A DNA stretch of 39,095 nt. Source: a virus. Its lineage: Duplodnaviria; Caudoviricetes. Positions 14,790-29,727 of the stretch are shown one piece after another. The stretch is taken from the IMG/VR virus record IMGVR_UViG_3300016665_000018, positions 1 through 39,095 of that record, one strand, 5' to 3'. The position numbers were made by a program, and so were the translations under genes. Below the pieces are notes generated by a model that saw only the letters and a program-made list of their open reading frames with translations, did not search any database and had not been told where the DNA came from. Position 1 is the first letter of the stretch. Every line of letters starts with the position of its first letter.

Positions 14790-14993
14790 ATGACTCCTGC
14801 TGACTGGGCTAAATTAGCCGTTGCATTAATAACTATCTTTGGCGCACACGCTGGGCTAGTTAAATTCCTAACTAAACATTATCTATCTGAACTTAAACCA
14901 AACGGCGGTTCCAGTCTTAAGGACAAGGTTAATGCGTTAGAAGATAAAGTAGATTTATTAACTGAACTGGTGAAAGAATCTTTGAGGAGATGA
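14790..14993 (+). CDS. Membrane protein (holin/lysis accessory-like)
   Basis: N-terminal TM helix, PNGGSSLKD motif and coiled coil; upstream of the endolysin. Confidence 0.6.
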   Translation: MTPADWAKLAVALITIFGAHAGLVKFLTKHYLSELKPNGGSSLKDKVNALEDKVDLLTELVKESLRR

Positions 14994-14999
14994 AAGAGT

Positions 15000-15527
15000 A
15001 TGAAGAAAGCTGTAGTCGGGAAAGCCACACCTGCTGCAATCGCTCTGTTGCGACAGGCGACTGCCATTGCTCCGAAGCGTATGAAGGCGAGCGATGGACT
15101 GCTACCTTCTGCTGCTCACCTCAAAGTAAGTCCGAATTCGGACCACAATACTGGGCTAGCAGTAGACCTGACGCACGACCCGAAGAATGGAATAGACTGT
15201 GAGCTCATCTTTGAAAAACTTAAAGAGGATGAACGCGTTAATTACCTTATCTTCAAAGGGAAAATCTGGTCACGTCAAAGGCGCAAAGAAGGTAACAGAA
15301 AGTACACTGGTAGTAATCCTCACAATAAGCACCTTCACGTTAGTATTAATAGCACTCACAGTGATGACACTAGCCCTTGGTTCTGGTGGCTAGACCAGCC
15401 TAAAGTTCTCAATCAAGTAAAAGCTAAACTACAACCTACTCCTAAAAAGAAAGTTGTAGTTGAACCTGTTGCTGTGTGTACCTGTTGTAAGGTGCACGGG
15501 ATTGGGAGTAACCGAAAGGAAAAATAA
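15000..15527 (+). CDS. Putative endolysin, Zn peptidase (LAS/M15-like)
   Basis: SDHNTGLAVD (H-x6-D) and HNKHLHVS (HxH) motifs; lies between two membrane genes. Confidence 0.7.
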   Translation: MKKAVVGKATPAAIALLRQATAIAPKRMKASDGLLPSAAHLKVSPNSDHNTGLAVDLTHDPKNGIDCELIFEKLKEDERVNYLIFKGKIWSRQRRKEGNRKYTGSNPHNKHLHVSINSTHSDDTSPWFWWLDQPKVLNQVKAKLQPTPKKKVVVEPVAVCTCCKVHGIGSNRKEK

Positions 15528-15713
15528 ATGGAAACATTAAAGCAAGTATCTCTAACTTGGTTCCGCGCTGCAGCTTCTGCTGCTATTGCGCTATACCTAG
15601 CAGGAGAAACTGACCTAAAGACACTTGGAATGGCAGCACTTGCTGGTTTCTTGGGTCCTGTTCTTAAGTACCTAGACTCATCAGCGTCTGAGTTCGGCAA
15701 GGGCGCTAAGTAA
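15528..15713 (+). CDS. Putative holin
   Basis: 61 aa with two hydrophobic segments; follows the endolysin. Confidence 0.65.
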   Translation: METLKQVSLTWFRAAASAAIALYLAGETDLKTLGMAALAGFLGPVLKYLDSSASEFGKGAK

Positions 15714-15722
15714 TACAGTAAT

Positions 15723-15776
15723 AAAAGAGACCCCTCTACCTAGTCCGATATAGGTAGGGGGGTCCTTTTGTATTTT
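15723..15776 (+). terminator. Intrinsic terminator between the convergent arms (probably bidirectional)
   Basis: AAAA..GACCCCTCTACCTA-loop-TAGGTAGGGGGGTC-CTTTTGTATTTT. Confidence 0.85.
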
Positions 15777-15803
15777 CTGGCAGTCTTCCCCTTACTGTCA
15801 GAA
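15775..15803 (+). other. Hairpin with pyrimidine (anti-SD-like) loop CTTCCCCTT
   Basis: TTCTGGCAGT/ACTGTCAGAA 10-bp stem with a G.U pair on the + strand. Confidence 0.5.
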
Positions 15804-15808
15804 ATCTA

Positions 15809-16192
15809 TTATATCTTAACTCCTTGACTTATATCTATAAAACCCACAGCTTTAATTACTTTTTTTGTATTAGTAAACTCTGTAGTAGCTGGCATTAATC
15901 TGTTTGACCAGGCTGGTTCTGGTATTTTACTAAGGTCAAATGACCATTGTCCCTCTGGAGTTGAGTTAATATACATAGGAATCATAGCTCTAACTTTAGC
16001 CTGAACTATTAGATGGTCATACTTGGATTTTTCTATAAGTAGTTCTGGATAGTGTTTGTATCTGCACTTTAATTCTATATACAGGTTATTCTGCTCTGAT
16101 GTGCAGTCAAAGCAGTCGTATGTACCAGTAGATTTGACTAGGTCTTTATATAGATTTTGCTTGACATAGTCAAACAGTTGTTTCTCATTCAT
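15809..16192 (-). CDS. PD-(D/E)XK nuclease-fold protein
   Basis: E..FD..IELKCR..LLIEKSKY. Confidence 0.65.
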   Translation of the reverse strand: MNEKQLFDYVKQNLYKDLVKSTGTYDCFDCTSEQNNLYIELKCRYKHYPELLIEKSKYDHLIVQAKVRAMIPMYINSTPEGQWSFDLSKIPEPAWSNRLMPATTEFTNTKKVIKAVGFIDISQGVKI

Positions 16193-16646
16193 TGATAATT
16201 AAGTTATGCCAATACTCAGGTCTACTTCTAGCATCATAAAAGACTACAAGGTCACGCTCTTGCGTGTCCCATCTAGTATGAAACACTGGCTCTAGATGTG
16301 CTAGCTCTCTGGCTGGCACCATACTGATACCGTCTGAGAATCTAAAGCAGATACGATGATAAGAATGTTCACTGTCTGTGTATGGTGGTGCTATTAGCAT
16401 CTGCTGTAGCTTATTAAATGGGAAGATAGCTGGCTTGCTACTGTCCGTCTTAAGCCATTTGATTTCTAAATCACCGATGTAGTTCTCTCTATTGTTGCCC
16501 CATTGTAGGCAGATGTGAAAGTCAGTAAAGTAAAAGCGGGGAGTTGCATACATTTTCCAGCCTGTGAAGTATTCAGCTAGAGCTGTTGCTGCAATCTTTT
16601 CTCTCTTGCCGTCAGCATTTACCTGACGAATAGGTTCAAGCGCCAC
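16185..16646 (-). CDS. PD-(D/E)XK nuclease-fold protein
   Basis: REKIAA..FTDF..DLEIK..FPFNKL..RFSDG. Confidence 0.55.
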   Translation of the reverse strand: MALEPIRQVNADGKREKIAATALAEYFTGWKMYATPRFYFTDFHICLQWGNNRENYIGDLEIKWLKTDSSKPAIFPFNKLQQMLIAPPYTDSEHSYHRICFRFSDGISMVPARELAHLEPVFHTRWDTQERDLVVFYDARSRPEYWHNLIINE

Positions 16647-16914
16647 GTGCTCTTATCTCCCAATCTGGCATCACAGGTTTAGCTGTCATACCTCTGTGCC
16701 TACGGATTTGTCTACGAACTGCTGTAGTTGTACCTGCCCACCAGCCTTCAACATTGTACTCAAGTGCATACTCAAGACACTCTGCTTTAGCTGGGCAACC
16801 TGCACAAATTCTAATTAGTGATTCTTTTTGGTGATAAGTATTGCCGTTATCTGGAAACCAATCATTTGTATCTGTACCCTCACAAGCTGCTGGATTACTA
16901 AATACTGGTATCAC
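16636..16914 (-). CDS. whiB: WhiB-family Fe-S transcription factor
   Basis: Four Cys (C..WFP..ICAGCPAKAEC), LEYAL, GWWAG turn, basic tail. Confidence 0.93.
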   Translation of the reverse strand: MIPVFSNPAACEGTDTNDWFPDNGNTYHQKESLIRICAGCPAKAECLEYALEYNVEGWWAGTTTAVRRQIRRHRGMTAKPVMPDWEIRARGA

Positions 16915-17082
16915 TTAGCCTCCTGTTTTGTAGAACCCTGTACCCTTAAAGTGTACTGGGTTAGCTGTCCATAACCTAATCATTGTTTCACCGCACAACT
17001 CACAAGGCTCTGGCAAATTAGTAGTTGTTTCTTTTACTGTGCCACAAGACTTACATTTAAAATCATAGGTCGGCAATGCCAT
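16915..17082 (-). CDS. FmdB-family zinc-ribbon protein
   Basis: PTYDFKCKSCG..CELCG..FKGTGFYKT; start re-called after SD GGAGAGG. Confidence 0.85.
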   Translation of the reverse strand: MALPTYDFKCKSCGTVKETTTNLPEPCELCGETMIRLWTANPVHFKGTGFYKTGG

Positions 17083-17305
17083 CATCCTCTCCTGTTGGTG
17101 TAGGTAGTGTGACCATACTTCCACAGCTAGCACACTCTGCATCTACAAAGTAGAACGCCATCTCACCATCTACAAATCCACCTAACATTACAAAGATGTC
17201 GCAGCCACATACGCATACTTCTGTTGGCTCACCACGCAAGTCCATTGACTTGCTGTAGTCTGCTAAATGAAATAGCTCTCTTATGTCCCTACTCTGACTC
17301 ATCAT
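17063..17305 (-). CDS. Small Zn-finger protein
   Basis: CVCG..CASCG; DLRGEPT motif. Confidence 0.7.
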   Translation of the reverse strand: MMSQSRDIRELFHLADYSKSMDLRGEPTEVCVCGCDIFVMLGGFVDGEMAFYFVDAECASCGSMVTLPTPTGEDDGIADL

Positions 17306-17942
17306 CGTCCGCCATTGCTACTATGTCCTCATCTGAGAATGGCTTCCAGCCACCTAGATTTCTGATTAGTGAGTTGATGGCTCGCTGTACTTTCATACGT
17401 GCACCATCTGGGGTGGTATTTAAGTCTTTAGATATGTATGACCAGTCGTTTGAGTCTGTACTAAACCTGACCTTGAGTACATATTGCTTAGCTTCTGTTA
17501 GTTTATAGAAAGCATTGGCTATATCTGACCGTAGTACTAGCCAGTTGTTGCCGTCATTGCTTGGTTCTGACTTGCTGAACTTAAAGTTTAAATCTTTTAT
17601 CTTGGTGGGTATTTCATATGATTCAGAGATAATGCTTGGCAGGAATGCTTCAATGACTGTAGCGTCATAGTAGTACAGGTCTAAGATTTCATAGCCTACT
17701 GTCTTAGCTTTCTCACGTTCGCAGAACTTGATAGCTGCGTTGCGTAGTGACTTGGCTATTAACTTGTCCTTGTCCTTTTGGTCAAGGGCTGACCAGTCTT
17801 GGTACTTTCCTGGGTGGGTAACAAACCACAACCACAGTATCTGCTGTATGTCCTGTGCCTCAACCATTGGATACCGTCTGTGGTATTCCGAAGCTAGTGA
17901 GGCTACAAGAGCCTCATACTCAGAGAGATACCCTTGGTTCAT
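17289..17942 (-). CDS. RNA polymerase sigma-70 (ECF-like) factor
   Basis: Region 2-like (VEAQDIQQILWL..LRNAAIKFC) and region 4-like (KLTEAKQYVL..ISKDLNTT..VQRAINSL) segments. Confidence 0.75.
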   Translation of the reverse strand: MNQGYLSEYEALVASLASEYHRRYPMVEAQDIQQILWLWFVTHPGKYQDWSALDQKDKDKLIAKSLRNAAIKFCEREKAKTVGYEILDLYYYDATVIEAFLPSIISESYEIPTKIKDLNFKFSKSEPSNDGNNWLVLRSDIANAFYKLTEAKQYVLKVRFSTDSNDWSYISKDLNTTPDGARMKVQRAINSLIRNLGGWKPFSDEDIVAMADDDESE

Positions 17943-18228
17943 CTACGCCTTCCCATTGACCTCTTTGTACCATAAGTCCTATTATGGCATAGTTTGCCAA
18001 ATCTTTTAGGGTATCCTCAATAGATTCGTAGTTCGGCGTGTTGGTTTTTCTATTGAACTTTAGATGTTCTAACCGTGCCATCTTGTCGTGCATCCTAACA
18101 ATGAGTCCGTTCATCGGACCACCAGGTGCACGAGCAATATTATATGGACCGTAGTCTTGGTGCTTATGCACCATAGTTACTTTTAGTTCCATAAGGATGT
18201 CATCTAGATACTTAGTGTCCTTCATCAA
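17920..18228 (-). CDS. Nucleotide modification-associated domain 1 (DUF1599-like) protein
   Basis: KHQDYG..VRMHDKMARL..ESIEDTLKDLANYAII. Confidence 0.8.
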   Translation of the reverse strand: MMKDTKYLDDILMELKVTMVHKHQDYGPYNIARAPGGPMNGLIVRMHDKMARLEHLKFNRKTNTPNYESIEDTLKDLANYAIIGLMVQRGQWEGVDEPRVSL

Positions 18229-18520
18229 GCACTCCCTTTAGCTCTTTGTCTAGGTTGAACATTGCATCCTGCACTAATACTTCTTCAATAACTTCTTCAC
18301 CATCACCCTGTGCTGATGCTACTAATACTGTAGCTAGTAGGGTGAGCAGCACTTTAGCTTTGTAAACATCCTTATCCATCTCTACATAGACATCCCGCAT
18401 AGCGGTAAGCAGGTCTAGTCCTTTGTTATCTGAGATAGGCAAGCCTAATATAAGTGGGTTTTCTAATATGTAATCCCATACTTGTTCGTTATCCAGCGAT
18501 ACATTTTCTGATTCGTTCAT
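18212..18520 (-). CDS. Hypothetical protein
   Basis: Overlaps its neighbours within the operon; acidic and helical. Confidence 0.65.
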   Translation of the reverse strand: MNESENVSLDNEQVWDYILENPLILGLPISDNKGLDLLTAMRDVYVEMDKDVYKAKVLLTLLATVLVASAQGDGEEVIEEVLVQDAMFNLDKELKGVLDEGH

Positions 18521-19118
18521 CTAACCAGCCCGCCCCTTCTTGTAGTACGACGCTGTTAACGTCCTGCCCTTCTGGCATTTGAATAATATTAACATTACCT
18601 AACTCACGACTTATCTTCTTGCCAAAGTCCAGCCCTGGATTATCACCATCTGCTAGCACAATGACTGTGTCAAAGTCGTCTAGTATCTTGCTGTAGTAAG
18701 GCTTCCAGTTGTTAGCACCTGGGATGCCTACGGCTGGATGACCTGTCTTGACTACTGTTGTGATGCAGTCAATCTCACCTTCGGTAACACAGATGTAGCC
18801 GTCTGCTGTTAGCACAGCTTGTGCATTGAACATAGTTGTCTTAGCTCCTGGCAGACCAATGTACTTAGGGTCTTCGCCGTGGATGCTACGGAAACGTAGG
18901 TCTACTACACCTGATGGTGTTGTGTAAGGGATAACCAGCTTACCCACGTAGCCTTCGTGCCCTGGCAATGGATTCGCCACTACTCCTAAATGAAACGTCC
19001 TTGCTTCGTCTACCGACAGACCCCGTGTTGCTAGATAGTCTGCTGCTAGATGAATGTGCTGGGCGTATTCTGTCGCTGCCTGTAGGAGAAATTGTCTCTG
19101 CGAATTTGACAGCCTCAC
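18489..19118 (-). CDS. DNA primase catalytic (Toprim) subunit
   Basis: YLATRGL, PKY, VTEGEIDC, LADGDNPG, DVN; own SD GGAGG before GTG. Confidence 0.9.
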   Translation of the reverse strand: MRLSNSQRQFLLQAATEYAQHIHLAADYLATRGLSVDEARTFHLGVVANPLPGHEGYVGKLVIPYTTPSGVVDLRFRSIHGEDPKYIGLPGAKTTMFNAQAVLTADGYICVTEGEIDCITTVVKTGHPAVGIPGANNWKPYYSKILDDFDTVIVLADGDNPGLDFGKKISRELGNVNIIQMPEGQDVNSVVLQEGAGWLDERIRKCIAG

Positions 19119-19332
19119 GGTAGTTACCTCCCTCTCTCTGCATAATTAAATCGTATACATCTCCACCAACGCCACATCCGTGGCATTTAAATCTGTTCTC
19201 GTCAAAGTTGATACCAGCAGAAGCGTGTTTGTCTGGGTGGAACGGACACTTTATCTTGCGCCAGCCGCTACCTCTAGCAGGTACGGCTGCGCCTATATAC
19301 TCTAGGTATGCAGCAATACTATGCTTTTCCAT
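18940..19332 (-). CDS. DNA primase CHC2 zinc-binding subunit
   Basis: CPFHPD..FKCHGCG..GD. Confidence 0.88.
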   Translation of the reverse strand: MEKHSIAAYLEYIGAAVPARGSGWRKIKCPFHPDKHASAGINFDENRFKCHGCGVGGDVYDLIMQREGGNYREAVKFAETISPTGSDRIRPAHSSSSRLSSNTGSVGRRSKDVSFRSSGESIARARRLRG

Positions 19333-19663
19333 CTACTTTCTTCAAGAGTGCTAGCCATACCGATGCTGGCATCGTGGCATACCACTGCCCTACGTCTCCT
19401 TTGCCTTTGCGTTTGTGGATAACAACACCAGTCCAAGCATTGTCATTCTTCATCTCTACTTCTAACTCTGCTAGCCAACCAGCAAGGTCCATCTTAGCGT
19501 GGTTCTTTATCTCAATGGTAACTCCTGGGATACCACTGACATCACCCTTGTCTAGGGTTGCACCAGCTAATCTGCGGTCTGCATATGGGTAGCCATTGGC
19601 TTTAAGCCAAGCTACTACATCTCGTTCTGCTCCGCTGCCCTTGCGTTTGGCTGCACTACTCAA
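19319..19663 (-). CDS. Holliday junction resolvase-like PD-(D/E)XK nuclease
   Basis: KRKGSGAERDV..DKGD..IEIKN. Confidence 0.8.
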   Translation of the reverse strand: MSSAAKRKGSGAERDVVAWLKANGYPYADRRLAGATLDKGDVSGIPGVTIEIKNHAKMDLAGWLAELEVEMKNDNAWTGVVIHKRKGKGDVGQWYATMPASVWLALLKKVDGKA

Positions 19664-19839
19664 TCGCCCACTTCTTCTTTCGCTATCTCATAAACCATAT
19701 CACTAATTTCTTTGTAAAGTTTATCGTTGTTATACAAAGAATCAACTATCATATCCCATTCAACATTATTAACTGTTCTACCAATTAGAACTTCTACATC
19801 TTCACGACTGAATGAACAGTCCCAAATCTTAGTTTCCAT
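19660..19839 (-). CDS. Small hypothetical protein
   Basis: Start re-called at METKIWD after SD AGGAGACTA. Confidence 0.6.
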   Translation of the reverse strand: METKIWDCSFSREDVEVLIGRTVNNVEWDMIVDSLYNNDKLYKEISDMVYEIAKEEVGD

Positions 19840-20647
19840 ACATAGTCTCCTGTGCATATTTGATTTGAACATCATCTAGATACATACTGTCAGGGTTGAA
19901 AGCTAGGCTGACATAGTTGTTACCTGTCTGGTCTGCTCGCCCATATCTGTTCTTGACTGGGGCTACACATAGATAGGTGTCATCACCCTGCTTCATCTGT
20001 CCGATAGTCAGAACCATTGCTGGTATCTGATTGACTAGACCCTGGATTGCACTGCGTGGCTGGCAAGGATAACCCTCTGAGCCTTCTTTGGTGTGGTGTA
20101 AAACTAATACTGCTGCATTGGTATCACGGGCTAAGTACTTTAGTTCCTTCATAGCAGAACGCATACCCTGAAATTCTTCGTGACCATCCATAGCAATATC
20201 CATTAGATTGTCTACGACAATTAGTGTTGGGCTTCTGCCCCATACAGTTTCAAATGCACTGACCTCATCATCTAAATCTTTAAGAGTGGGAGTTGATTCA
20301 AAGGACCAGAACAAATGATTGTTAAGTGTAAGTATTTCTTCTGCTTGTTGTGGCTCACGCTTGAGCATCTGCTCTGCTGCTGTTTGTGTAATACGACTAG
20401 ACATAGCTAGCAAACGCATTGCCATAGTATGAGCATTAGTATCTGCGCTGAAGTACAGCGTAGGAACCTTTGCTCTGGCTGCAATTGCCAGTGCAACTGA
20501 TGACTTACCTGCACCTGGAGTGCCAGCTACCATTGTAATTTCTGCACGGCGCAGGATAATTCCTGCTCGTTCAAATGCCGCAAAAGCGGGGGGCAATGGT
20601 TCGCCCCCCACCTCTGCTTTGTTAATGCTTCTTCTTAGAGTTCTCAA
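19829..20647 (-). CDS. DnaB-like SF4 helicase (RecA-fold domain only)
   Basis: Walker A GTPGAGKS, Walker B IVVD, LKYLAR..VLHH, VKNRYG. Confidence 0.88.
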   Translation of the reverse strand: MRTLRRSINKAEVGGEPLPPAFAAFERAGIILRRAEITMVAGTPGAGKSSVALAIAARAKVPTLYFSADTNAHTMAMRLLAMSSRITQTAAEQMLKREPQQAEEILTLNNHLFWSFESTPTLKDLDDEVSAFETVWGRSPTLIVVDNLMDIAMDGHEEFQGMRSAMKELKYLARDTNAAVLVLHHTKEGSEGYPCQPRSAIQGLVNQIPAMVLTIGQMKQGDDTYLCVAPVKNRYGRADQTGNNYVSLAFNPDSMYLDDVQIKYAQETMYGN

Positions 20648-20738
20648 CTGTTACCACCTGACCGCACCGTGTGCAATAGATTGTTTTGTTGACAAGCGAG
20701 CTCCAATAAGTATGCCCGAATAATTTGCAGAGCCACAT
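20622..20738 (-). CDS. DUF1660-like small Zn-binding protein (38 aa, not in ORF track)
   Basis: MWLCKLFGH..YCTRCG; ATG overlaps the upstream stop. Confidence 0.7.
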   Translation of the reverse strand: MWLCKLFGHTYWSSLVNKTIYCTRCGQVVTVENSKKKH

Positions 20739-21208
20739 TACTTAACTTGTTCAGCTACGAATGTGTTCCACTCTGGTGAACCTGCACGAACATATACGTT
20801 CTTGCACTTATCAAATGCACCCTTTGGTGCTGGGCAGAAGTAACCACGGTATGTCTTACCGTCTTTGCCTGTGCCTTGGATGGCTGTCATCTTTCCGTGA
20901 GGACAGTTCTTGCCACCTAATGATGGGGCTGCTGCTGGAGCAGATGGTGTTGACCAATTATCTGACGGAGTTGTGTCAACGATTGATGCGCCAAGCACTG
21001 CTGCTACTTGTGCTGGTGCCATAGCTGGTGCTGCTGGTGTAGTTACACCACGCACTGCGCCTTCTAGTTCTGTGACTGCAGACTTAACTGCATCTAGTGA
21101 TAGTGATACTAGCTGGTCTAGTTCATCACCGTGCTCTGCACGGATAGTTACTAATGAACCTGCTGGTGTTTTGACTGTGATACTGATTGGTGCTTCAGTG
21201 CTAGCCAC
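20738..21208 (-). CDS. Hypothetical protein with C-terminal Zn finger (possible recombination partner of the exonuclease)
   Basis: Pro/Ala linker then CPHG..YFC..C; lies between exonuclease and helicase. Confidence 0.65.
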   Translation of the reverse strand: MASTEAPISITVKTPAGSLVTIRAEHGDELDQLVSLSLDAVKSAVTELEGAVRGVTTPAAPAMAPAQVAAVLGASIVDTTPSDNWSTPSAPAAAPSLGGKNCPHGKMTAIQGTGKDGKTYRGYFCPAPKGAFDKCKNVYVRAGSPEWNTFVAEQVK

Positions 21209-21986
21209 TGATTTCTCCTTCTGTAAATGGAGTAGCTAAACCTTTTTTGTCTCGCCACTCTCTGACTTTCATTGCAAATTGTACACCCTTCCATCCTTCT
21301 TTAATATCAATCCATACTAATTTGCATAGACCAGTACCTGCAGGAAGATGGATGATGATGGCTTTATCTTTATTGATATCGCCCCAACTGCCACGGGTTG
21401 CCGTCGCAACATCGTATGGCAACCCGTTAGCATAGATAGCTAACTGCATAGCAATGTTGTTTGGGTGGTCAATCCGTCCAGTTTTAATATCAGCAATGAA
21501 CCGTTCACCGTTTAACTCAACAACTCTGTCTGGTGTTCCAGCTATTTTATACTTGTCAAGGACTGTGAACTGTTCTATGTAAATCTTATTTAGTTTTTTT
21601 GTAGCTTCCTCATAGGCTCGGATGTCCCCTGCCCACTCGCTTGGAACAGTACCAATGTCTTGTCCCAAATCTAATCGCTCAGTGAAAGCGTGAATAGCTG
21701 TGCCGATAGTTGCTGCACGGCTTGCACCTGCAACTTCCATAGCATCTTCTATGTATCTATTAATAGCCATCTTGTCATCTTGTGATGCGTTAATAGCTAG
21801 CAGCAGGTCGCTGCGAATTGTTAAACCAATCGCTGCCATACGCATCTTCCACGCTGTCAGCGCAGCAGGGTCATCTAAACTATTGGCAATAGTAGTAGCC
21901 CTTGTATATGCCATCGGCTTGCCACCTTTAGGTGGTGTAACTAACGGACGACCATATCTGTCCCGTTGTATTTCCGCTTTTGTCAT
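21201..21986 (-). CDS. PD-(D/E)XK exonuclease (RecB/Cas4-like)
   Basis: GTAIH, IE, AGTPDR, DIKTG, QLAIYA. Confidence 0.85.
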   Translation of the reverse strand: MTKAEIQRDRYGRPLVTPPKGGKPMAYTRATTIANSLDDPAALTAWKMRMAAIGLTIRSDLLLAINASQDDKMAINRYIEDAMEVAGASRAATIGTAIHAFTERLDLGQDIGTVPSEWAGDIRAYEEATKKLNKIYIEQFTVLDKYKIAGTPDRVVELNGERFIADIKTGRIDHPNNIAMQLAIYANGLPYDVATATRGSWGDINKDKAIIIHLPAGTGLCKLVWIDIKEGWKGVQFAMKVREWRDKKGLATPFTEGEISG

Positions 21987-22006
21987 TAGGTCCTTAAGTC
22001 TCCTTG

Positions 22007-22105
22007 TAAAAGAGGCGGGCTAGAAAGGAGACTAATCAAAACCAGCCCGCGCTCTGTGCTACAAGACTACCACGAAAGGCAAGTGGTAGTGATGGATTGC
22101 AGCAC
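22007..22105 (-). ncRNA. Candidate two-hairpin sRNA/terminator with anti-Shine-Dalgarno loops
   Basis: On the minus strand: GUGCUGCAA..ACUACCAC[UUGCCUUUC]GUGGUAGU.UUGUAGCAC, then GCGGGCUGG[UUUUGAUUAGUCUCCUUU]CUAGCCCGC-CUCUUUU; G.U pairs fix the strand. Confidence 0.6.
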
Positions 22106-22524
22106 TACTGCTGGGTTGTGTCGTTTACTTCCACATCCCAATCATCTAGTGAGCCATTGCCAAAGTCTAGGTCAACACTTAAGTTGCCCTCTACTATCTC
22201 ACGGGCTTCATCTTCTGACTCTGCTTCCAGGTCTGTGATAGTAAAGTTAATGGTGCCTGTAATTGTGAACAGTACCTTTAACTTTTCTGAACCAATAGAC
22301 TCAAGCAACTCATTGACATCATCTACTGTAGCTGTGATGGTGTCATCTGATGAATCATAACGGTCTTTAAAGAATTCATAGACCTTATCACGATTGCCAC
22401 TATACTTAACAAAGTAACTATTGCTTTGCTTCTTATAGTAGTCACGGTCTGTGATTGCATTCTTAATCATATCATCGGTGTACTTGGTAGTACTACCGTC
22501 TTCATTTGTGTGTAGGTATTCCAC
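22105..22524 (-). CDS. Acidic hypothetical protein
   Basis: Start re-called at GTG 22524 after SD AAGGAGACTA. Confidence 0.7.
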   Translation of the reverse strand: MEYLHTNEDGSTTKYTDDMIKNAITDRDYYKKQSNSYFVKYSGNRDKVYEFFKDRYDSSDDTITATVDDVNELLESIGSEKLKVLFTITGTINFTITDLEAESEDEAREIVEGNLSVDLDFGNGSLDDWDVEVNDTTQQ

Positions 22525-22534
22525 TATAGTCTCC

Positions 22535-22747
22535 TTATGCTGTATAGGACCAGCGATGGTTGTCATCTGCATACCGCTTAGCATCTTGCCAAGCAGTCTC
22601 CCCATAGAAATACTTAGGGGATTTATTAGGTACTTCTACTTTGTAGAAGAAACCATAATCAATGTCAGCAACATATACCTTAGCGGTTGGGTTGCTGTTT
22701 TCGTGTTGCTCCCATTTGGATACATCTCTTACTGATGGTCTTCTCAT
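22535..22747 (-). CDS. Hypothetical protein
   Basis: ATGA overlap; KYFYGETAWQDA. Confidence 0.7.
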   Translation of the reverse strand: MRRPSVRDVSKWEQHENSNPTAKVYVADIDYGFFYKVEVPNKSPKYFYGETAWQDAKRYADDNHRWSYTA

Positions 22748-23733
22748 ACTGTTAATAACTCCAATGCACGTAGCTTTAGATTATCTGAGCCACCTGACAT
22801 AGCCCTGACACCTGTGGCTGTGCCTTTGTCTTGCTTACCGTGGTCGGCATATTCAACAATAGATTGCCACAAACCAAAGGCTGTGCCTCTGATGTTTTCC
22901 TGCGTCGGGCTACTCTCATAGATAGCCCGCGCAGTATTGCGGGCTGTGACTGCACGAGTTAGCTGTGCTTTCTCACCCATACTGAGCAGATGATGAGGTG
23001 ATTCCTCAATGTGAGCTGGCAACGGAAATACTTTCTTGAAGTAATTAAGTGCGTGCTCACGTGCTATCTCTTTGTCTAGCAGATGGTTAGCTATATCTGA
23101 GTAAGCCTGAATGTTGTCATAGGTAAGCCCCATAATGTGACGTATCTCTGATACATCCAGCTTGCTATTACTGGTGTGCTTAAGTGTGTATGTGAACTTG
23201 TTCTTGCCCCGATAGATTTTGTTAATCTGATTAGAGCAGAACAGACGCTCAATGACTGGCTTGATAATGACTGAGCTGCTGCCATCGTGGCTGGTCTTAG
23301 CCAGGATAAAAGCTGCGTGTGGGTCATTGGCTACATTGATTTCATTAGGTAACTGCAACAACATCCACACCTTTGCGCCGCCATCATACTCACCAGCGGC
23401 TGCATATCTAGCCTCGCCAGAATCAATCAGTGTATCCAGCGCTGAGAATATCTCACCGTTCTGGAATATCTGATAGCGATTACCAACTACACCTATGTTG
23501 TCTACATTGCCGAAAGGTGTGGTCTTGATAACTGCCTGCTTGTTTCTGACTGGAATACTGATGGGCTGACCTGCGCCTGGGATTACATACTGCGCTGTCA
23601 TTGGATGCAGCGATACTGTCCAGTCAAGACCTGCTTGTCTGGCTACATCGCTAGCTGAGGTAGCTGTTACTGCTGTGCCTGACTTGTACCAGTTAGATAC
23701 ATTTTTAGCTGGCACTGTCAACGTGGTTGTCAT
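22744..23733 (-). CDS. DUF932 family (phage/plasmid-like, TIGR03299-type) protein
   Basis: AGLDWTV, GVVGNRY..QN, SHDGS, RLFCSN, KHT, GTAFGLWQSIVEYADH; SD AAGGAGAC. Confidence 0.88.
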   Translation of the reverse strand: MTTTLTVPAKNVSNWYKSGTAVTATSASDVARQAGLDWTVSLHPMTAQYVIPGAGQPISIPVRNKQAVIKTTPFGNVDNIGVVGNRYQIFQNGEIFSALDTLIDSGEARYAAAGEYDGGAKVWMLLQLPNEINVANDPHAAFILAKTSHDGSSSVIIKPVIERLFCSNQINKIYRGKNKFTYTLKHTSNSKLDVSEIRHIMGLTYDNIQAYSDIANHLLDKEIAREHALNYFKKVFPLPAHIEESPHHLLSMGEKAQLTRAVTARNTARAIYESSPTQENIRGTAFGLWQSIVEYADHGKQDKGTATGVRAMSGGSDNLKLRALELLTV

Positions 23734-24253
23734 ATGTCTCCTTGTCATAGATTCTTTCTAGTACTGCGCCGTGCAAATCTTCTGCCATCATACGCATTAT
23801 GCTTGAGTCCCAACCTGCTTCATATACTTGGTTAAGTAGTTGAGCTAGTGCATACTCTGGGTCAGTCTCAAATACTTTTGCAATTGTTTCTCTTGCTTCT
23901 TGTGGCATATCAAACTCATATAGATAAGATGATAAGACAGTAGCAAATGGAACTGCATACTCTTTGTCTAGCACTTCATTAAGAAGTGTTAGGTATGTAG
24001 CTACATTAGGTGATGGTTTCTCTGAGCGGACACCCATAAAGAAGTCACGCATTTGTAGATGTTCTTTGCAAGCTATTGCTACTTCTGCAATGTGCTTAGC
24101 TGTTGGAATAACTGGCTCATCTAGCTGCATACCGTCAATGAAGGTACGGATTTCTTCTACCAATCTAATATTGGTATCAGTATCTTCCCAGTTATATTTA
24201 ACTTTAGGTAGCTCAAGTGCTACGTCTACCTGTAATTGTCCTACTGTTGTCAT
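23705..24253 (-). CDS. DUF4192-like helical protein
   Basis: LQMRD..PFATVLSSYLY..DPEYALAQLL..G pattern; SD AAAGGAGACTAA. Confidence 0.6.
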   Translation of the reverse strand: MTTVGQLQVDVALELPKVKYNWEDTDTNIRLVEEIRTFIDGMQLDEPVIPTAKHIAEVAIACKEHLQMRDFFMGVRSEKPSPNVATYLTLLNEVLDKEYAVPFATVLSSYLYEFDMPQEARETIAKVFETDPEYALAQLLNQVYEAGWDSSIMRMMAEDLHGAVLERIYDKETYDNHVDSAS

Positions 24254-24283
24254 TGTTAGTCTCCTTTGTTGTTATGTTTGTGT

Positions 24284-24364
24284 GTGCTAGGTGGCACGAC
24301 TACGTCACTCTTACCCTTTTATCATTGAGGACCTAGCACTTTTCCTGGCTATACAAGCAGGAAA
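24284..24364. other. Two intergenic inverted repeats
   Basis: GTGCTAGGT/ACCTAGCAC (24284-24339) followed by TTTT on +; TTTCCTG/CAGGAAA (24340-24364). Confidence 0.5.
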
Positions 24365-24365
24365 T

Positions 24366-24800
24366 CTAATACCATCCGTTCTTGCGCCAATGCGCCCAAG
24401 CTACTGATGGTTTGCCGTAGCGATGTTGGATGTACTCCAAGCCACGAGCAATCTGCTCGGGCGCAGGAGTATCAGGTTTCATACCTAGTATCTGTGGGAT
24501 ACCAAATGCTGTTGACTTAGGGTTGTCTGCTGTGTGGTCCCACGCAGATTCTTTACCCCAAAGTTTTGCCAATGCACGGAACTCTGATGCTCCCCAAGTT
24601 TCATACTGCGCTGTAATTAGCGCCTTCGCATAGGATTTGCTCAAGGATTTCGTCCAGCGAATCTCCTTGCGTTCCTTCTTGGTTGGCTCGGTCTTGTCCT
24701 GCAATCTGTCTGCGACTGCTACTGCATATGATTGACTGGGATAGAGAGTGTATGACAGCGTCAATGCCCAGCTGAATAGCTTTGCTAACTTGGTCTTCAT
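24366..24800 (-). CDS. Lytic transglycosylase (SLT/lysozyme-like) with N-terminal signal/TM segment
   Basis: KESAW..ADNPKSTAFGIPQ..QIARGLEYIQHRYG..AWAHW..GWY. Confidence 0.85.
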   Translation of the reverse strand: MKTKLAKLFSWALTLSYTLYPSQSYAVAVADRLQDKTEPTKKERKEIRWTKSLSKSYAKALITAQYETWGASEFRALAKLWGKESAWDHTADNPKSTAFGIPQILGMKPDTPAPEQIARGLEYIQHRYGKPSVAWAHWRKNGWY

Positions 24801-24892
24801 TTAGTACTCCATCTGTATAGGCAATACCCAATTGCAATGAGGTAAAGCCAGGTGATACCTGTTGAGATGTGCGGAAAGATAGCTTCATTCAT
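24797..24892 (-). CDS. 31-aa membrane peptide (not in ORF track)
   Basis: MNEAIFPHISTGITWLYLIAIGYCLYRWSTK; SD GGAAGG; ATGA overlap with the SLT gene. Confidence 0.6.
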   Translation of the reverse strand: MNEAIFPHISTGITWLYLIAIGYCLYRWSTK

Positions 24893-24901
24893 AGTGCCTT
24901 C

Positions 24902-25375
24902 CTACCAGGATGATTGGTAATACAGACTGATGTCCTCGGGCAAGGATAGCACCTTGTTAATCTGTTTAATAGTATCTTCTAGCTCTGCCCAGTAGTACTC
25001 GTCTATGTCATTAGAGCCAAAGAAAAAACCAGCTACTCTTGGCAGTATGTCTGGGTCTTGGGTGTTGATTGCCTGTTGGCAAGCATCACGTAGGTCTGTT
25101 AAACCTCTGCGACTTACATAATACTCCTCGCAGTTGTCCTCACCAGCTTGCACATTATCCACAAACCAGCCGTGTATATGGTTGGCTTTTCTCCAGTATG
25201 CAACAGGGAATTGTATGGTTAGCCCGCAGTCTGCTGACTCACAAGCATCTTTAATATTGACCAGCTCTTTGACACTGTCTGCCAAGGGATTGGTCTTAAA
25301 CTTTCTTGCTTCATCGTCCCATTCTGTAATGCCAGTAATATATTTCTTGGCAAATAGATACATATCTAGTCCCAC
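24902..25375 (-). CDS. Conserved phage hypothetical protein (MGLDMYL..YWRKAN..YQSSW family)
   Basis: Recognisable motif family; SD AAGGAGACTAA. Confidence 0.85.
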   Translation of the reverse strand: MGLDMYLFAKKYITGITEWDDEARKFKTNPLADSVKELVNIKDACESADCGLTIQFPVAYWRKANHIHGWFVDNVQAGEDNCEEYYVSRRGLTDLRDACQQAINTQDPDILPRVAGFFFGSNDIDEYYWAELEDTIKQINKVLSLPEDISLYYQSSW

Positions 25376-25385
25376 GTTAGTCTCC

Positions 25386-25496
25386 TTACTTGATAGGTGC
25401 GTTGGCTATTAAATCTTCTACGACTTCGTTAAGTCTATTTACTTCTACAATAAGGCTGTCAAGCCATTGGCATATCTCTTGCAAATCATTACTCAC
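25386..25496 (-). CDS. 36-aa amphipathic helical peptide (not in ORF track)
   Basis: MSNDLQEICQWLDSLIVEVNRLNEVVEDLIANAPIK; SD AGGAGACTAA. Confidence 0.65.
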   Translation of the reverse strand: MSNDLQEICQWLDSLIVEVNRLNEVVEDLIANAPIK

Positions 25497-25497
25497 T

Positions 25498-25635
25498 TTA
25501 GTCTCCTATCCTAATTTCATCTAGCTGTATGTTGCAGTTGTCGCAGTAATATTGCTGCTCATTAAGTGTCTGATACTCACACTTCGGGCAAGACCAGGCA
25601 TAACCGTGCAGCTTGCCATCTTGTAGTAGCCACAT
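25498..25635 (-). CDS. 45-aa Zn-ribbon protein (not in ORF track)
   Basis: CPKC..CDNC; fills the intergenic gap. Confidence 0.65.
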   Translation of the reverse strand: MWLLQDGKLHGYAWSCPKCEYQTLNEQQYYCDNCNIQLDEIRIGD

Positions 25636-25636
25636 A

Positions 25637-25765
25637 CTATGCGCCTATCTTGGCAAAGGCACAGGTTTGGCATAGGTAATAGTCATACTCGTTCTTGTCA
25701 TCAACTGGAATCACTAGGTCCCAGTCACATTTCTGACAGGTTGCGTTGAAATATTTACTAGTCAT
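25637..25765 (-). CDS. 42-aa Zn-ribbon protein
   Basis: Start re-called at MTSKYF; CQKC..CQTC. Confidence 0.65.
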   Translation of the reverse strand: MTSKYFNATCQKCDWDLVIPVDDKNEYDYYLCQTCAFAKIGA

Positions 25766-25979
25766 TGTAGATTTCCTCTCGGTCTTGACCAAAGGTTTCT
25801 TCCCAACATTTGGGGTGCATACCACTAATTATCTGCTCTCGTAGTGGCACTGTCAATGATTTGAAAGCTGTGGCTACAAATTCTCCACGCAGATAGGTGA
25901 ACAACTCGTTCTCATCTACTGTTACTGTGCCTGTCTTGAAGCAGACTGGGCATCTGCGGGTAGCAAATACTGTCATCAT
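25758..25979 (-). CDS. Small Zn-binding protein
   Basis: CPVC..REQIISGMHPKCW; SD AGAAAGGG. Confidence 0.75.
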   Translation of the reverse strand: MMTVFATRRCPVCFKTGTVTVDENELFTYLRGEFVATAFKSLTVPLREQIISGMHPKCWEETFGQDREEIYND

Positions 25980-26131
25980 CGGCGGGCTGCCCTTTCTGTT
26001 TTTAATAGCCTGACTGTTGCTCTGTATTCACGTTCCCATTTACGGGCAGAACGGAATAGGATTACATTTATAAACATCTGTGATAATAAAGCAATACTGA
26101 TAGCAATTAAATCTAATTCATTGAAAATCAT
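25976..26131 (-). CDS. 51-aa single-pass membrane protein (not in ORF track)
   Basis: MIFNELDLIAISIALLSQMFINVILF plus basic tail; ATGA overlap. Confidence 0.65.
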   Translation of the reverse strand: MIFNELDLIAISIALLSQMFINVILFRSARKWEREYRATVRLLKTERAARR

Positions 26132-26176
26132 TTGGTTGACTCGTTCCTGTCCACGGATTACCCGTCTGCGCCTGGC

Positions 26177-26224
26177 AAAAAAAGGGAAGGTGAGCTAGCC
26201 GAGCCGAAGCCCGACTAGCCCACC
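26177..26224 (-). terminator. Intrinsic terminator with cUUCGg loop
   Basis: GGTGGGCTAGTCGGGC-TTCG-GCTCGGCTAGCTCACC-TTCCCTTTTTTT on the minus strand. Confidence 0.88.
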
Positions 26225-26231
26225 GAGTGAC

Positions 26232-26552
26232 TTAGCTTAGTAGCTCAAGGGTGGTAACGATTTGGTTGTCATACCACTTGGTCTGACCTTTGTCCTCACG
26301 GACTGTTGTGGTCATATAGCCTGACAGATTGACGAAGAACTCTGCATTGTCTGCGAGTAGTGGACGAATCTGGGCGATGATGGTTGGGTCTGTAATGGTG
26401 ACCTGACGGCTAGCGATGAAGCGAGCACGAACTTGACCATCTGGTGTGTATTCAGTTTGACGGGATTGAACGATACCTTTGACAACGGTGCCGTAATCCT
26501 TGACTGACTTGAGTAGAGCATTGTTGAAGTTGAAGCTGTTTACTGTGTTCAT
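26232..26552 (-). CDS. Divergent SSB-like OB-fold protein lacking an acidic tail
   Basis: Strand pattern MNTVN..KD..SRQ..DG..F..VNLSGYMTT..EDKG..W..IV..LELL parallels SSB; SD AAGGAGACTAA. Confidence 0.6.
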   Translation of the reverse strand: MNTVNSFNFNNALLKSVKDYGTVVKGIVQSRQTEYTPDGQVRARFIASRQVTITDPTIIAQIRPLLADNAEFFVNLSGYMTTTVREDKGQTKWYDNQIVTTLELLS

Positions 26553-26587
26553 TGTTTAGTCTCCTTGTTAGTTAGTTACTTTTTGTT

Positions 26588-26622
26588 GGGGAATTCCCCC
26601 GTCACCCTGACGGGGGTTCCCC
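26588..26622. promoter_or_regulatory. GC-rich hairpin in the leader of the SSB-like gene
   Basis: GGGGAATTCCCCCGTCA-CCC-TGACGGGGGTTCCCC; on the minus strand it is followed by an A-rich enhancer and SD, not a U-tract. Confidence 0.65.
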
Positions 26623-26632
26623 TTGGGATAGA

Positions 26633-26986
26633 TTAGTTGCAGTTTGGACAGACTGAGTGTCTGTTATGGGTAAGATGGCAGGACTCGCAGATGGTTTCTG
26701 CTGGAGTCACAGTGACACTGGTTTCTAAATCATACAGACGGTCAACCAGTAGGCTGATTGGCGGGAGGAACTCGTCCTCACGCTCTGTCCAGTCGTGACC
26801 TGAAGGTTGCTCCTGTTGGATAGACCAGATGAACTTGTATTGCATATTACCCTCATCAACTATCTGATGAGCAATATGTATGTCACGACTGTCACGGGTT
26901 TCTTGGCAGTCGGGGCATAGTTCGTTCAGTGCTTGGCATCCATAGCACATAGTTTGGATTGAGATGCCGTTGTCTGTTGTGTTCAT
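26633..26986 (-). CDS. Cys-rich protein with two Zn-binding clusters (first gene of the early arm)
   Basis: CYGC..CPDC and CESC..CPNC; start re-called after SD AGAAAGG. Confidence 0.7.
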   Translation of the reverse strand: MNTTDNGISIQTMCYGCQALNELCPDCQETRDSRDIHIAHQIVDEGNMQYKFIWSIQQEQPSGHDWTEREDEFLPPISLLVDRLYDLETSVTVTPAETICESCHLTHNRHSVCPNCN

Positions 26987-27003
26987 AACTACCTTTCTGT
27001 CCT

Positions 27004-27404
27004 CAGCCACCCTGGCTGGAACAGCCCCAGCAGGACCGCCCTGTCACTCCGACAGCGCCGAGGCGCTGGCGGCGGGGCGCGGCTCTGACGCGCCAGAACG
27101 CGTGGTTTACCACGCGGGCGAGCAATCGGCTTCTGCTTAGGCTTTGCTGATTAGGCAAAGCCTGAAGCCGATTTGACAGGAGCGGTACGCTGGAAAGGAA
27201 TACTGTCGGACTAACAGCGACAGAGCCGCGGAAGCAACGCGGCTCTCGCTGGGGCCGACTTGGTATAAAGACAGCGACAGAGGTTGTCAGCGCGTGGCGA
27301 GGCTGCGACCGAAGCCACGCGGTCCTGACAGCCTGCGCTGTCGGTGCGGGCTGCACAGTCCACGGCTTTTACCTGTGAGCCGAAGGCAATCGGCTCTGCC
27401 GATT
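27004..27404 (+). ncRNA. Large GC-rich multi-hairpin element (structured ncRNA or ssDNA element)
   Basis: More than 10 local stems plus long-range pairings 27024-31/27248-55, 27040-46/27174-80 and 27048-55/27203-10; G.T pairs favour the + strand. Confidence 0.55.
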
Positions 27405-27649
27405 TAGGTTTTTATTTAATAGTCCGAGCGCCAGAAACTATGGTTTATAAGCGAGGCAGACTGTCTGTCAGCCAGCGTCCGCTGGAACTGTACAGGTACG
27501 GCGACAGCCAAACAGGATGGGGTCTAGATGACCCCAGACTGTTTAAAACTGAGCCCTGATAGTATGAGTAACACTGAAAAAGATTTTTCCGTACAGAGCC
27601 TATGCCCCTGCTCCTGTCCTATTATGTCCTATTTTGTATATATGCTTTC

Positions 27650-27665
27650 TGTGAGTTAGCTCACA
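27650..27665. promoter_or_regulatory. Consensus CRP/GlxR-type binding site
   Basis: TGTGA-GTTAGC-TCACA, a perfect TGTGA-N6-TCACA. Confidence 0.55.
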
Positions 27666-27685
27666 CTTTGCAAGCAAAGCGTTCG

Positions 27686-27714
27686 TTTGGGCTGTTTGAA
27701 CGGATTAATACTAT
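27686..27714 (+). promoter_or_regulatory. Possible promoter for the terminase/late arm
   Basis: -10 TACTAT at 27709-14; weak -35 TTGGGC 16 bp upstream. Confidence 0.35.
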
Positions 27715-27840
27715 ATAGGGGCGCAAAGCGCCCACTGATAGTAGCAAGGTCTTTCGGACCTTGCGTTACAGACTGTATCTACTATCTGTTTCTAACTGTC
27801 TGTACTAACTATCAGTATAGTTTATAGATGGGACAGTTCT

Positions 27841-29727
27841 GTGACTTTTCAGAAGGGCAAAGCCAACCCTAGGACGGAGGCTATGGCTGAGGCAAAGGCT
27901 AAAGTAATAGCCCTTGTCTCTGAGGGGTGGACCCCCCATAAGGCTATGGCTGAGGTTGGCAAGCAACCCGATACCATTCGTATCTGGTGTATGAGGGACC
28001 CGAAATTTGCCACTGCCCTAGCACAGGCAAAAGAAGATGCTAAAGAGCGAAGCCTCACGGCTTTGGGGATTGCCCGTGAGGAAATAAGTTTTCCACAGTT
28101 TTCTGAGATGTTTTTGGAGCAGAAAGTCTTTCCACACCATCAAGACTGGATTGACCTACTTGAGGGACGGGAGCCTAGCTGGCTCCACGAGAATATGATT
28201 TACGAGAAGGGCGACCCAAATCGCCTTCTGGTAAACGTGCCACCTGAGCACGCTAAGTCCACCGTTATTACGGTGAACTACTCTACCTACCGCATCGCGC
28301 TAAATCCCAATGTTAGAATCATCGTAGTTTCTAAGACGTTGGTCAAGGCACGTGAGTTCGTGTATGCCATCAAGCAAAGGTTATCCCACCCGCGCTGGTT
28401 GAAGTTGCAGACAACTTTTGGACCAGAAGGGGGCTGGAAAGAAGATTCCGATACCTGGCGTGTTGACACCGTCTATTTGGGAAGCGATGCCCGTAATTCA
28501 TCTGAGAAGGACCCGACTATTCAGGCACTCGGTATGGGGGGTCAAATCTACGGTGCCCGTGCCGACCTAATCATTCTTGACGACTGTATTACTACTGCTA
28601 ACGCTCACGAGTATGAGAAGCAGATTAACTGGCTACAAAAAGAAGTTATTACCCGTTTAGGTAAAAACGGTAAGTTGTTAGTGGTAGGAACCCGAATTGC
28701 GCCAACTGACTTTTATAAAGAACTCCGTGACCCAAAGCATTGGTCAGGGGGCAAGAGCCCATTTACGTATATGGGTATGCCTGCTGTTCTACGTTATGCT
28801 GAGAACCCAAAAGATTGGGAAACACTCTGGGCTAAATCGGATGTTCCCTGGGATGGCGATGAGGACACGCCAGATGAGGACGGATTATATCCTAAGTGGG
28901 ATGGTCCGACCCTGGCACGGCGCAGAGGCGAAGTTACTCCGTCTACGTGGGCTTTGGTTTACCAGCAGGAAGATGTAGTAGAAGATTCCATTTTTCCCGC
29001 TGAACTTGTTCAGGGTTCCATAAATGGGATGAGAAAGCGTGGTCCTTTGAGACCAGGCGCTGCAGGTCATCCAACACAGGTTGAAGGTTATACCGTTGTA
29101 GGTTTTGACCCAGCTATGGCTGGTAACGCTGCATTTGTAGCTATGACTTATAACCGATTAGACGGCAAGATTTATGTGCTGGATGTTCTTAATATGTCAG
29201 AACCTACACCACAAAAGATTAGACAAGCTATTGAGGAATTTGTAGAAAAATTTAAACCACAGGAGTTACGTGTTGAGATTAACGCACACCAGAAAGCGTA
29301 CTCCCTTGACACAGAATTACAACAGTGGTTGGCAACTAGAGGTGTTCGCCTCAATTCTCACTTCACTGGCAAAAACAAATGGGACACAAACTTTGGTGTT
29401 GCAGGAATGTCAACACTGTTCGGCAGCACAAACAACGGAAAGCATCAAAAGAACAACCTCATTGAGTTACCAAGTACTGAAGGCTCTGAGGGTCTAAAGG
29501 CGTTAGTACAACAACTACTAACTTGGAGACCTGAAACCAGAGGTAAGACTGACTGTGTGATGGCTTTGTGGTTCGGAGTATTACGTTGCCGTGAATTTAT
29601 GCAACAAAACTCTGTAGTGCAAAGGTATGCCCATAACCGTTGGGCAACAAGAGCACAAGTAGCAAAACGATACACAGTAAATCTTGACGAGATGATTGCC
29701 GAACAATGGCAACAAACATACGGATAG
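27841..29727 (+). CDS. terL: Terminase large subunit with N-terminal HTH extension
   Basis: VNVPPEHAKST (Walker A), LIILDD (Walker B), VGTR, YQQ, GFDPA and DCVMALWF nuclease motifs. Confidence 0.92.
   Translation: MTFQKGKANPRTEAMAEAKAKVIALVSEGWTPHKAMAEVGKQPDTIRIWCMRDPKFATALAQAKEDAKERSLTALGIAREEISFPQFSEMFLEQKVFPHHQDWIDLLEGREPSWLHENMIYEKGDPNRLLVNVPPEHAKSTVITVNYSTYRIALNPNVRIIVVSKTLVKAREFVYAIKQRLSHPRWLKLQTTFGPEGGWKEDSDTWRVDTVYLGSDARNSSEKDPTIQALGMGGQIYGARADLIILDDCITTANAHEYEKQINWLQKEVITRLGKNGKLLVVGTRIAPTDFYKELRDPKHWSGGKSPFTYMGMPAVLRYAENPKDWETLWAKSDVPWDGDEDTPDEDGLYPKWDGPTLARRRGEVTPSTWALVYQQEDVVEDSIFPAELVQGSINGMRKRGPLRPGAAGHPTQVEGYTVVGFDPAMAGNAAFVAMTYNRLDGKIYVLDVLNMSEPTPQKIRQAIEEFVEKFKPQELRVEINAHQKAYSLDTELQQWLATRGVRLNSHFTGKNKWDTNFGVAGMSTLFGSTNNGKHQKNNLIELPSTEGSEGLKALVQQLLTWRPETRGKTDCVMALWFGVLRCREFMQQNSVVQRYAHNRWATRAQVAKRYTVNLDEMIAEQWQQTYG

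Follow-up and report, generated by a model that had tools for sequence, protein, structure and literature searches.

Hairpin 2, a minus-strand stem-loop directly upstream of the exonuclease gene that heads the replication operon, is a real and conserved phage RNA element, and apparently one that has not been described so far. Its loop is complementary to a private, extended Shine-Dalgarno (SD) tag on early genes of the phage. We consider it fairly probable that the element is a trans-acting anti-RBS leader of the replication transcript, whose loop would pair with this tag and dampen early translation.

Genome setting and conservation of hairpin 2

The window, the whole stretch of 39,095 nt analysed here, is a 39-kb virus record with 43% G+C and an estimated completeness of 99%. 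The plus strand carries the terminase, portal, and capsid genes, and the minus strand carries a block of small genes (26986–22105), called early here from its position and gene types, followed by the exonuclease, an L5 gp49-like gene, a helicase, a resolvase, a primase, a sigma-like factor, and WhiB. Since WhiB is present and the closest annotated exonucleases belong to Mycobacterium and Streptomyces phages, an actinobacterial host is indicated, possibly a freshwater Nanopelagicales bacterium. Scans of genome contigs found no prophage and no actinobacterial host. The features around the element are as follows.

22066–22090, minus strand: hairpin 1, 8 bp, loop UUGCCUUUC; relatives keep the stem, not the loop; overlaps the predicted promoter
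22064–22072, minus strand: extended -10 promoter (TG-G-TAGTCT) predicted within the hairpin-1 3' arm; predicted start at about 22057
22011–22055, minus strand: hairpin 2, inner 9-bp stem (22050–22042/22023–22015, one G.U) plus a lower AGAG/CUCU helix; 18-nt loop
22024–22035, minus strand: anti-RBS loop segment UUAGUCUCCUUU, 10 of 12 bases unpaired at a probability of at least 0.88
22008–22014, minus strand: CUCUUUU tail, unconserved
21997–22005, minus strand: distal AAGGAGACU site of the exonuclease leader, GGAG to AUG 13 nt; possible cis partner of the loop
21991–21995, minus strand: proximal second SD-like AAGGA of the exonuclease leader, read from the sequence
21201–21986, minus strand: Cas4-like/PD-(D/E)XK exonuclease, first gene of the replication operon (phrog_466, E 3e-65; PF12705)

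Both of the neighbouring minus-strand hairpins that the preliminary description placed past the stop of the last small gene (22105) are present. The 126-nt stretch that holds them folds at -46.8 kcal/mol (z -4.1), which none of 200 shuffles equalled, and an RNA reading through from upstream is predicted to fold both. The loop of hairpin 2 is UUUUGAUUAGUCUCCUUU, and the longest C-run in either loop is at most 2 nt. The strand had been assigned from G.U pairs; the window alone has one such pair and does not settle it, but the family does: with pairing registers set on Watson-Crick pairs only, hairpin 2 has 23 G.U and no A.C pairs, and hairpin 1 has 39 and 10, respectively. A second copy of the element was not found within the window (next match E 4.3). 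Rfam gave no match at gathering score in the window, none at E ≤ 5 in 21800–22300, and none in six related loci.

Exonuclease queries retrieved 312 loci. When the window is counted in, the start could be located and the upstream DNA sufficed in 303 loci, 203 of them unique. Contigs from three sequencing runs presumed to be RNA contain relatives only and do not bear on expression. Hairpin 2 lies directly upstream of the exonuclease in 154 of the 203 unique loci and is absent from 49, detection being by a CUCCU-type loop rule that makes conservation of the core partly a matter of definition. Among 15 hand-picked diverse copies, compensatory changes occur at eight of the nine stem pairs and no pair is broken, and the 18-nt loop is nearly constant while the stem sequence varies. 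An independent search of IMG/VR with the 18-nt loop pattern returned 60 matches. In 53 of them, the loop sits in a stem of at least 8 bp and the exonuclease follows, and 52 carry the promoter motif; the other seven have neither stem nor adjacent exonuclease, and those listed look like opposite-strand RBSs of other genes. In the homologue search, the best 120 exonuclease proteins all share at least 76% identity. In Dulem virus 32, whose exonuclease identity is 38%, there is no intergenic gap ahead of the exonuclease.

A second structure, an apparent H-type pseudoknot of about 35 nt, was observed 30–180 nt upstream of the exonuclease in 67 of the 203 loci (L049, L064, L087, L130, and others), and it occupies the hairpin-2 position in 47 of the 49 loci without hairpin 2. 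Both of its helices show compensatory changes (GUCCCG/CGGGAC to GCCCCG/CGGGGC; GAUGG/CCAUC to AGUGG/CUACU). In the L049 group, it starts at the predicted transcription start site. It was not found in the part of the window searched (14001–29000) and has no Rfam match.

The literature searched holds no description of the element. Four loop strings are absent from six files of the supplementary data of a viral structured-RNA catalogue (PMC10690425) and three from its file 4; files 1 and 2 of that catalogue lay outside the search and may hold the element. A preprint (10.64898/2026.09.22.753630) contains no Shine-Dalgarno passage.

The early-gene tag and its relation to the loop

In the window, the tag is the extended Shine-Dalgarno sequence AAGGAGACUA, and a leader that carries it reads AAGGAGACUAA. 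The predicted targets and the one match elsewhere are listed below.

26556–26566, minus strand: predicted target RBS AAGGAGACTAA, gene 26552
25498–25507, minus strand: predicted target RBS AGGAGACTAA, 36-aa ORF at 25496
25377–25387, minus strand: predicted target RBS AAGGAGACTAA, gene 25375
24256–24267, minus strand: predicted target RBS AAAGGAGACTAA, gene 24253 (DUF4192)
23736–23743, minus strand: weaker predicted target RBS AAGGAGAC, DUF932 gene (start 23733)
22527–22536, minus strand: predicted target RBS AAGGAGACTA, last early gene (GTG at 22524)
19843–19851, minus strand: sole tag match beyond the early block (AGGAGACTA), ahead of a small replication-region gene

The complementary matches to loop 2 reported earlier were all recovered: the longest, of 12 nt, lies at 24267 (gene 24253), two of 11 nt lie at 26566 and 25387, and one of 9 nt lies at 22005 (exonuclease). 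To these are added 10 nt at 22536 and 25507 and 9 nt at 19851. Loop pairing with the tagged early leaders would extend over 10–12 nt, across the SD and the spacer, at a predicted -15 to -18 kcal/mol. The 5-kb early block holds five copies of AGGAGACTA and the remaining genome, on both strands, two, one of which is the element itself. The sequence stands ahead of 5 of 14 early genes versus 1 of 46 other genes (Fisher p 0.002, with five of the 46 non-early start positions approximate), the exception being the replication-region gene; plus-strand (structural) genes have none. Good targets make up only 5–6 of the 14 early leaders, and the difference in pairing energy is modest (p 0.023).

Whether the loop follows the dominant early RBS in relatives was tallied from the three letters after GGAG in distinct early RBSs, grouped by loop type, the RBS lists coming from a simple GGAG-plus-start rule with its noise included. 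ACT occurs in 60 of 153 early RBSs of anti-ACT loops versus 2 of 66 for anti-ACA, 2 of 279 for anti-AGA, and 0 of 119 in hairpin-less loci. ACA is found in 22 of 66 for anti-ACA loops and in 5 of 119 in hairpin-less loci, and AGA in 33 of 279 for anti-AGA loops, 0 of 153 for anti-ACT, 3 of 66 for anti-ACA, and 3 of 119 in hairpin-less loci, AAA (37) being commoner than AGA (33) in the AGA lineage itself. The 5' side of the tag behaves similarly: ACAA-GGAG makes up 32 of 278 RBSs with UUGU loops (AGA lineage) versus 0 of 119, 1 of 105, 4 of 88, and 1 of 43 (0–5%) in the other large groups. RBSs of downstream genes do not track the loop (5/53, 1/39, 0/170). Among the 32 of 46 tree representatives with a GGAG-type hairpin and at least four early RBSs, the excess of own over foreign pairing is 0.45 nt for early RBSs and 0.01 nt both for downstream genes and for the exonuclease RBS. 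Anti-ACA loops pair with ACT-lineage RBSs (1.71 nt) as well as with their own (1.57 nt; Watson-Crick pairs only).

The expected tracking thus appears at the lineage level for GGAG followed by ACU, ACA, or AGA, but not in five small groups: anti-ACG (0/17, in two separate sub-lineages), anti-ACC (1/15), anti-AAA (0/11), anti-AGT (0/5), and anti-ATT (0/3). A fourth lineage (L073, L128, L129, L146, L188) has a different hairpin with a loop complementary to ACAAAAGGA, and its early region carries ACAAAAGG at 0.47 per kb (7 in 14.9 kb) versus 0–0.07 elsewhere. The anti-SD hairpin of this lineage lies in the early 3'-UTR, right after the last early stop, and both the pseudoknot and the promoter come after it, which makes the intergenic cassette modular. 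The loop-tag signal at the lineage level is real and falls short of proof of co-evolution; it rests on about three to four lineages of the tree and therefore may partly be shared descent, and carries no valid p-value.

Predicted promoter, hairpin 1, and neighbouring features

Of the 154 loci, 152 have the motif TGnTAnnnT no more than 32 nt from the hairpin-2 stem, versus 898 of 30,600 random windows (2.9%), and in 150 of these 152 its distance to the CUCC of the loop is 29–34 nt. The three middle letters vary freely. A T two places 5' of TG, outside the search pattern, is 94% conserved (C in the window itself) and agrees with the extended -10 motif T-17 G-16 T-15 G-14 given in the accessible text of PMC6212719. 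The motif is kept where a rearranged hairpin 1 puts the -10 in a loop (L324, L332), and reading the 5' arms on the reverse strand yields it in only 3 of 64. The first paired base of hairpin 2 falls 5–8 nt past the -10 in 98 of 103 distinct leaders, the lower bound of this spacing being set by the fold window. Because the promoter motif stands at a fixed distance in the 3' arm of hairpin 1, hairpin 2 is probably the 5' end of the replication transcript rather than a terminator-ended 3'-UTR sRNA, and transcription would start at the foot of hairpin 2, near 22057.

An RNA of about 100 nt from the 3'-UTR, ending in CUCUUUU, had been proposed earlier. The tail exists in the window, but only 9 of the 154 loci have TTTT in the 14 nt after the stem, and hairpin 2 is therefore not a conserved U-tail terminator; with the promoter motif conserved between the two loops, the proposed transcript is not supported. 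Terminators without a U-tail exist in actinobacteria, and hairpin 2 could still be one.

Hairpin 1 is likely the 3' end or terminator of the early transcript. Its loop had been described as complementary to a second SD class, GAAAGG/GAAGGCA; such leaders do exist at 26986, 25979, and 24892, but a conserved second anti-SD does not. GAAAGG also precedes the plus-strand genes 1780, 5592, and 15514, GAAAGG leaders are present in relatives regardless of the sequence of loop 1, and no preference for early leaders was found (p 0.82). The 64 distinct hairpin-1 loops comprise 44 of CCGU type, five anti-AUG, two with CCUUUC (CCTTTC in the DNA), and 13 others, the GCCUUUC loop recurring among the near relatives of the window. 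The CCGU(C) motif (L003, L087, L126, and many others) lies at a variable distance from the -10, and a target for it was not found. In the L049/L055/L157/L169 group, the hairpin-1 loop is complementary to a start-codon region (AAAUGAAnAAAC) resembling the start of the transglycosylase-like early gene. Covariation of this anti-AUG loop with that gene start in the hairpin-less lineage was apparent in four loci and was rejected, as the full listing has as many mismatches (L163, L164, L168, L149, L055).

Several further features of the window were recorded. Two extended -10 motifs that point towards each other, at 27738–27746 (minus strand) and 27557–27565 (plus strand), lie between the early block and the terminase; the former, TTGCTACTAT, is found again in many loci of the ACT, ACA, and hairpin-less groups, 79–104 nt from where the terminase starts, though not in the AGA lineage. 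The G+C-rich 746 nt at 26990–27735 (minus strand), between this predicted early extended -10 (27746) and the first early gene, lack a convincing gene, fold far better than shuffles (z -7.6, 0 of 20 as good), and have no Rfam match; they could form a long structured leader, an ncRNA, or an origin or packaging structure. Strong terminator-like hairpins lie at 26189–26224 (minus strand), within the early block after gene 26552, and at 15729–15764 (plus strand), where the two arms converge. A 31-codon ORF at 24797–24892 (minus strand) has a stop that overlaps the start of the transglycosylase-like gene (TAAATG), as in most of the relatives listed, an arrangement that suggests translational coupling. 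The ORF at 32163–37718 encodes 1851 aa and has no PHROG family.

Mechanism, alternatives, and related systems

The co-varying structure, the promoter motif at its regular spacing, the complementarity, and the lineage tracking lead us to infer the following course of events. A host-type RNA polymerase would start at the foot of hairpin 2, and the 5'-terminal stem would stabilise the resulting RNA piece, which may accumulate as a leader, as a processed piece of about 50 nt, or within read-through RNA from the early operon, which may provide the same loop. The open loop would then pair over the SD and spacer of tagged early mRNAs and keep out the 30S subunit, and early synthesis would drop as the leader builds up. 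This course does not account for the timing, since a similar extended -10 also stands ahead of the early block (27746) and a promoter of host type could fire without delay. Trans action on RBSs had already been suggested in the preliminary description. The part of it that remains the best reading is loop 2 acting on the phage's own early mRNAs, which the conservation, the single-stranded state, and the lineage tracking of the loop favour; the parts concerning a 16S mimic, loop 1, and a 3'-UTR origin were not borne out.

The nearest possible partner of the loop is the exonuclease leader itself. The loop and the nearby GGAGAC could form an H-type pseudoknot that gates or self-limits exonuclease translation, with the match to early RBSs reflecting only a shared phage SD style. 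This cis control would fit the 9-nt match 19 nt downstream in the window, the four of five anti-ACG loci that match their exonuclease site, and the pseudoknot at the equivalent position in nearly all hairpin-2-less loci. Moreover, among 40 distinct ACT/ACA/ACG/ACC leaders, the distal GGAGAC is kept at long, poor SD spacing in 35, which hints at an additional cis role. We nevertheless regard cis control, already raised in the earlier account, as rather unlikely to be the main role, since the exonuclease RBS equals the loop tag in only 7 of 154 loci and shows no cognate excess. The predicted stem (median 12–15.5 bp) and the 3–7 nt linker would also, on steric grounds, hold the loop out of reach unless the lower stem melts, and the second SD would often be left free. 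In the window, a cis pseudoknot is possible given opening of the lower helix. A second purine SD is present in 29 of the 40 leaders. The exonuclease gene seems to be spared by its own leader, as most of its RBSs do not match the tag and several lineages have another SD past the GGAGAC site; the retention of the distal GGAGAC together with a second SD may serve loop masking or exonuclease escape.

A loop that pairs with early leaders might also favour them, by stabilising the mRNA or helping ribosome loading, and base complementarity by itself is compatible with an effect of either sign. The SD core lies within the paired stretch, however, and the tested precedent in the accessible text of PMC10470900, B11/6C, represses, which makes a favourable effect highly improbable. 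Alternatively, hairpin 2 could simply stabilise the 5' end of the replication mRNA or serve in its processing, with a loop that is CU-rich by origin (e.g., an inverted RBS) and tracks early RBSs through common descent only. The location at the predicted start site, the small number of independent lineages, and the seven stemless pattern matches, the listed ones resembling opposite-strand RBSs, agree with such a hairpin, but the loop is nearly fixed despite a changing stem, both flanks of CUCC track the early tags, and an antisense gene using the tag as its RBS would need an antisense start, which follows the tag in 0 of 154 loci; we hold this explanation to be quite unlikely. The version in the preliminary description, a 3'-UTR sRNA of about 100 nt that carries two anti-SD loops, imitates the 3' end of 16S rRNA, and shuts off host translation as well, is in our view very unlikely. 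Both hairpins would fold in read-through RNA, the U-tail is present in the window, the L073/L128 lineage has an anti-SD hairpin in the early 3'-UTR upstream of the promoter, and the CUCCUU core could pair over 6–7 nt with host SDs. Yet, against the 16S 3' end as quoted in that description, CUCCUUUCU occurs in 15 of 154 loops and CCUCC in none, and the final two nucleotides of the CUCCUUUCU match belong to the stem rather than the loop. The loop reads the phage tag GGAGAC and not a host consensus, which speaks against host shut-off, and the rarity of the U-tail, the unconserved loop 1, and the promoter motif between the two loops all count against the remainder.

Loops that cover SD sites are known from S. 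aureus RNAIII/RsaE and alphaproteobacterial cuckoo/CcsR, host regulators of other phyla with C/U-rich hairpin-loop motifs; Rfam scans of the window gave no sequence or model match to them. In T4, RegB ends early translation through GGAG Shine-Dalgarno sites and is a protein endoribonuclease, not an RNA. The closest likeness is to the mycobacterial 6C/B11 sRNA, an actinobacterial stem-loop whose unstructured pyrimidine loops pair with the RBSs of many mRNAs and, as compensatory mutants demonstrated, repress through this pairing; in the accessible text, 6C/B11 is a stand-alone host sRNA whose two C-run loops read G tracts (PMC10470900). Unlike it, the element described here is encoded by a phage, is a predicted mRNA leader, and has one CU-rich loop, directed at a private tag of GGAGAC type that genes of the phage itself carry. 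With no Rfam match and no C-run loops, it does not belong to 6C/B11, though it shares with anti-SD loop RNAs a conserved stem and an exposed loop complementary to several RBSs.

The tag itself resembles the start-associated sequences (SAS) of cluster K mycobacteriophages, extended SD-like tags that precede non-structural genes and include conserved positions unable to pair with 16S rRNA (PMC3203893). According to the accessible text, the SAS is a 13-bp GGGATAGGAGCCC in 11–19 copies, often with inverted repeats (ESAS), and four genomes hold a single opposite-strand copy; the authors left an RNA or protein partner open, and no partner RNA is identified there (PMC3203893). The phage studied here differs in that its one antisense copy forms part of a co-varying hairpin loop that follows a promoter motif. 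An extended SD-like repeat limited to non-structural gene starts is likewise found in the window, whose leaders, as inspected by eye, carry AAGGAGACTA and not the SAS consensus GGGATAGGAGCCC.

The phage early-to-middle switches known so far are mostly protein-run. We tentatively propose, as a distinct possibility, an all-RNA timing switch in which early genes bear a lineage-specific address tag in the SD region and the 5' leader of the replication operon that follows serves as the cognate antisense repressor, so that entry into the middle programme would silence the early genes; the gene behind this leader would be immune, and no protein regulator would be needed. If true, an mRNA leader would repress a whole class of the phage's own genes by antisense pairing, with a co-evolving tag as the address, and if general, the switch would explain the actinophage start-associated sequences left unexplained in the 2011 paper. 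A hairpin of about 50 nt and a 12-nt leader, with natural compensatory variants, offer a concrete and cheap test of the role of these sequences, which PMC3203893 left open. A conserved promoter class is also indicated in an abundant family of uncultured aquatic phages, and the element would provide a compact, chaperone-free design for addressed translational repression.
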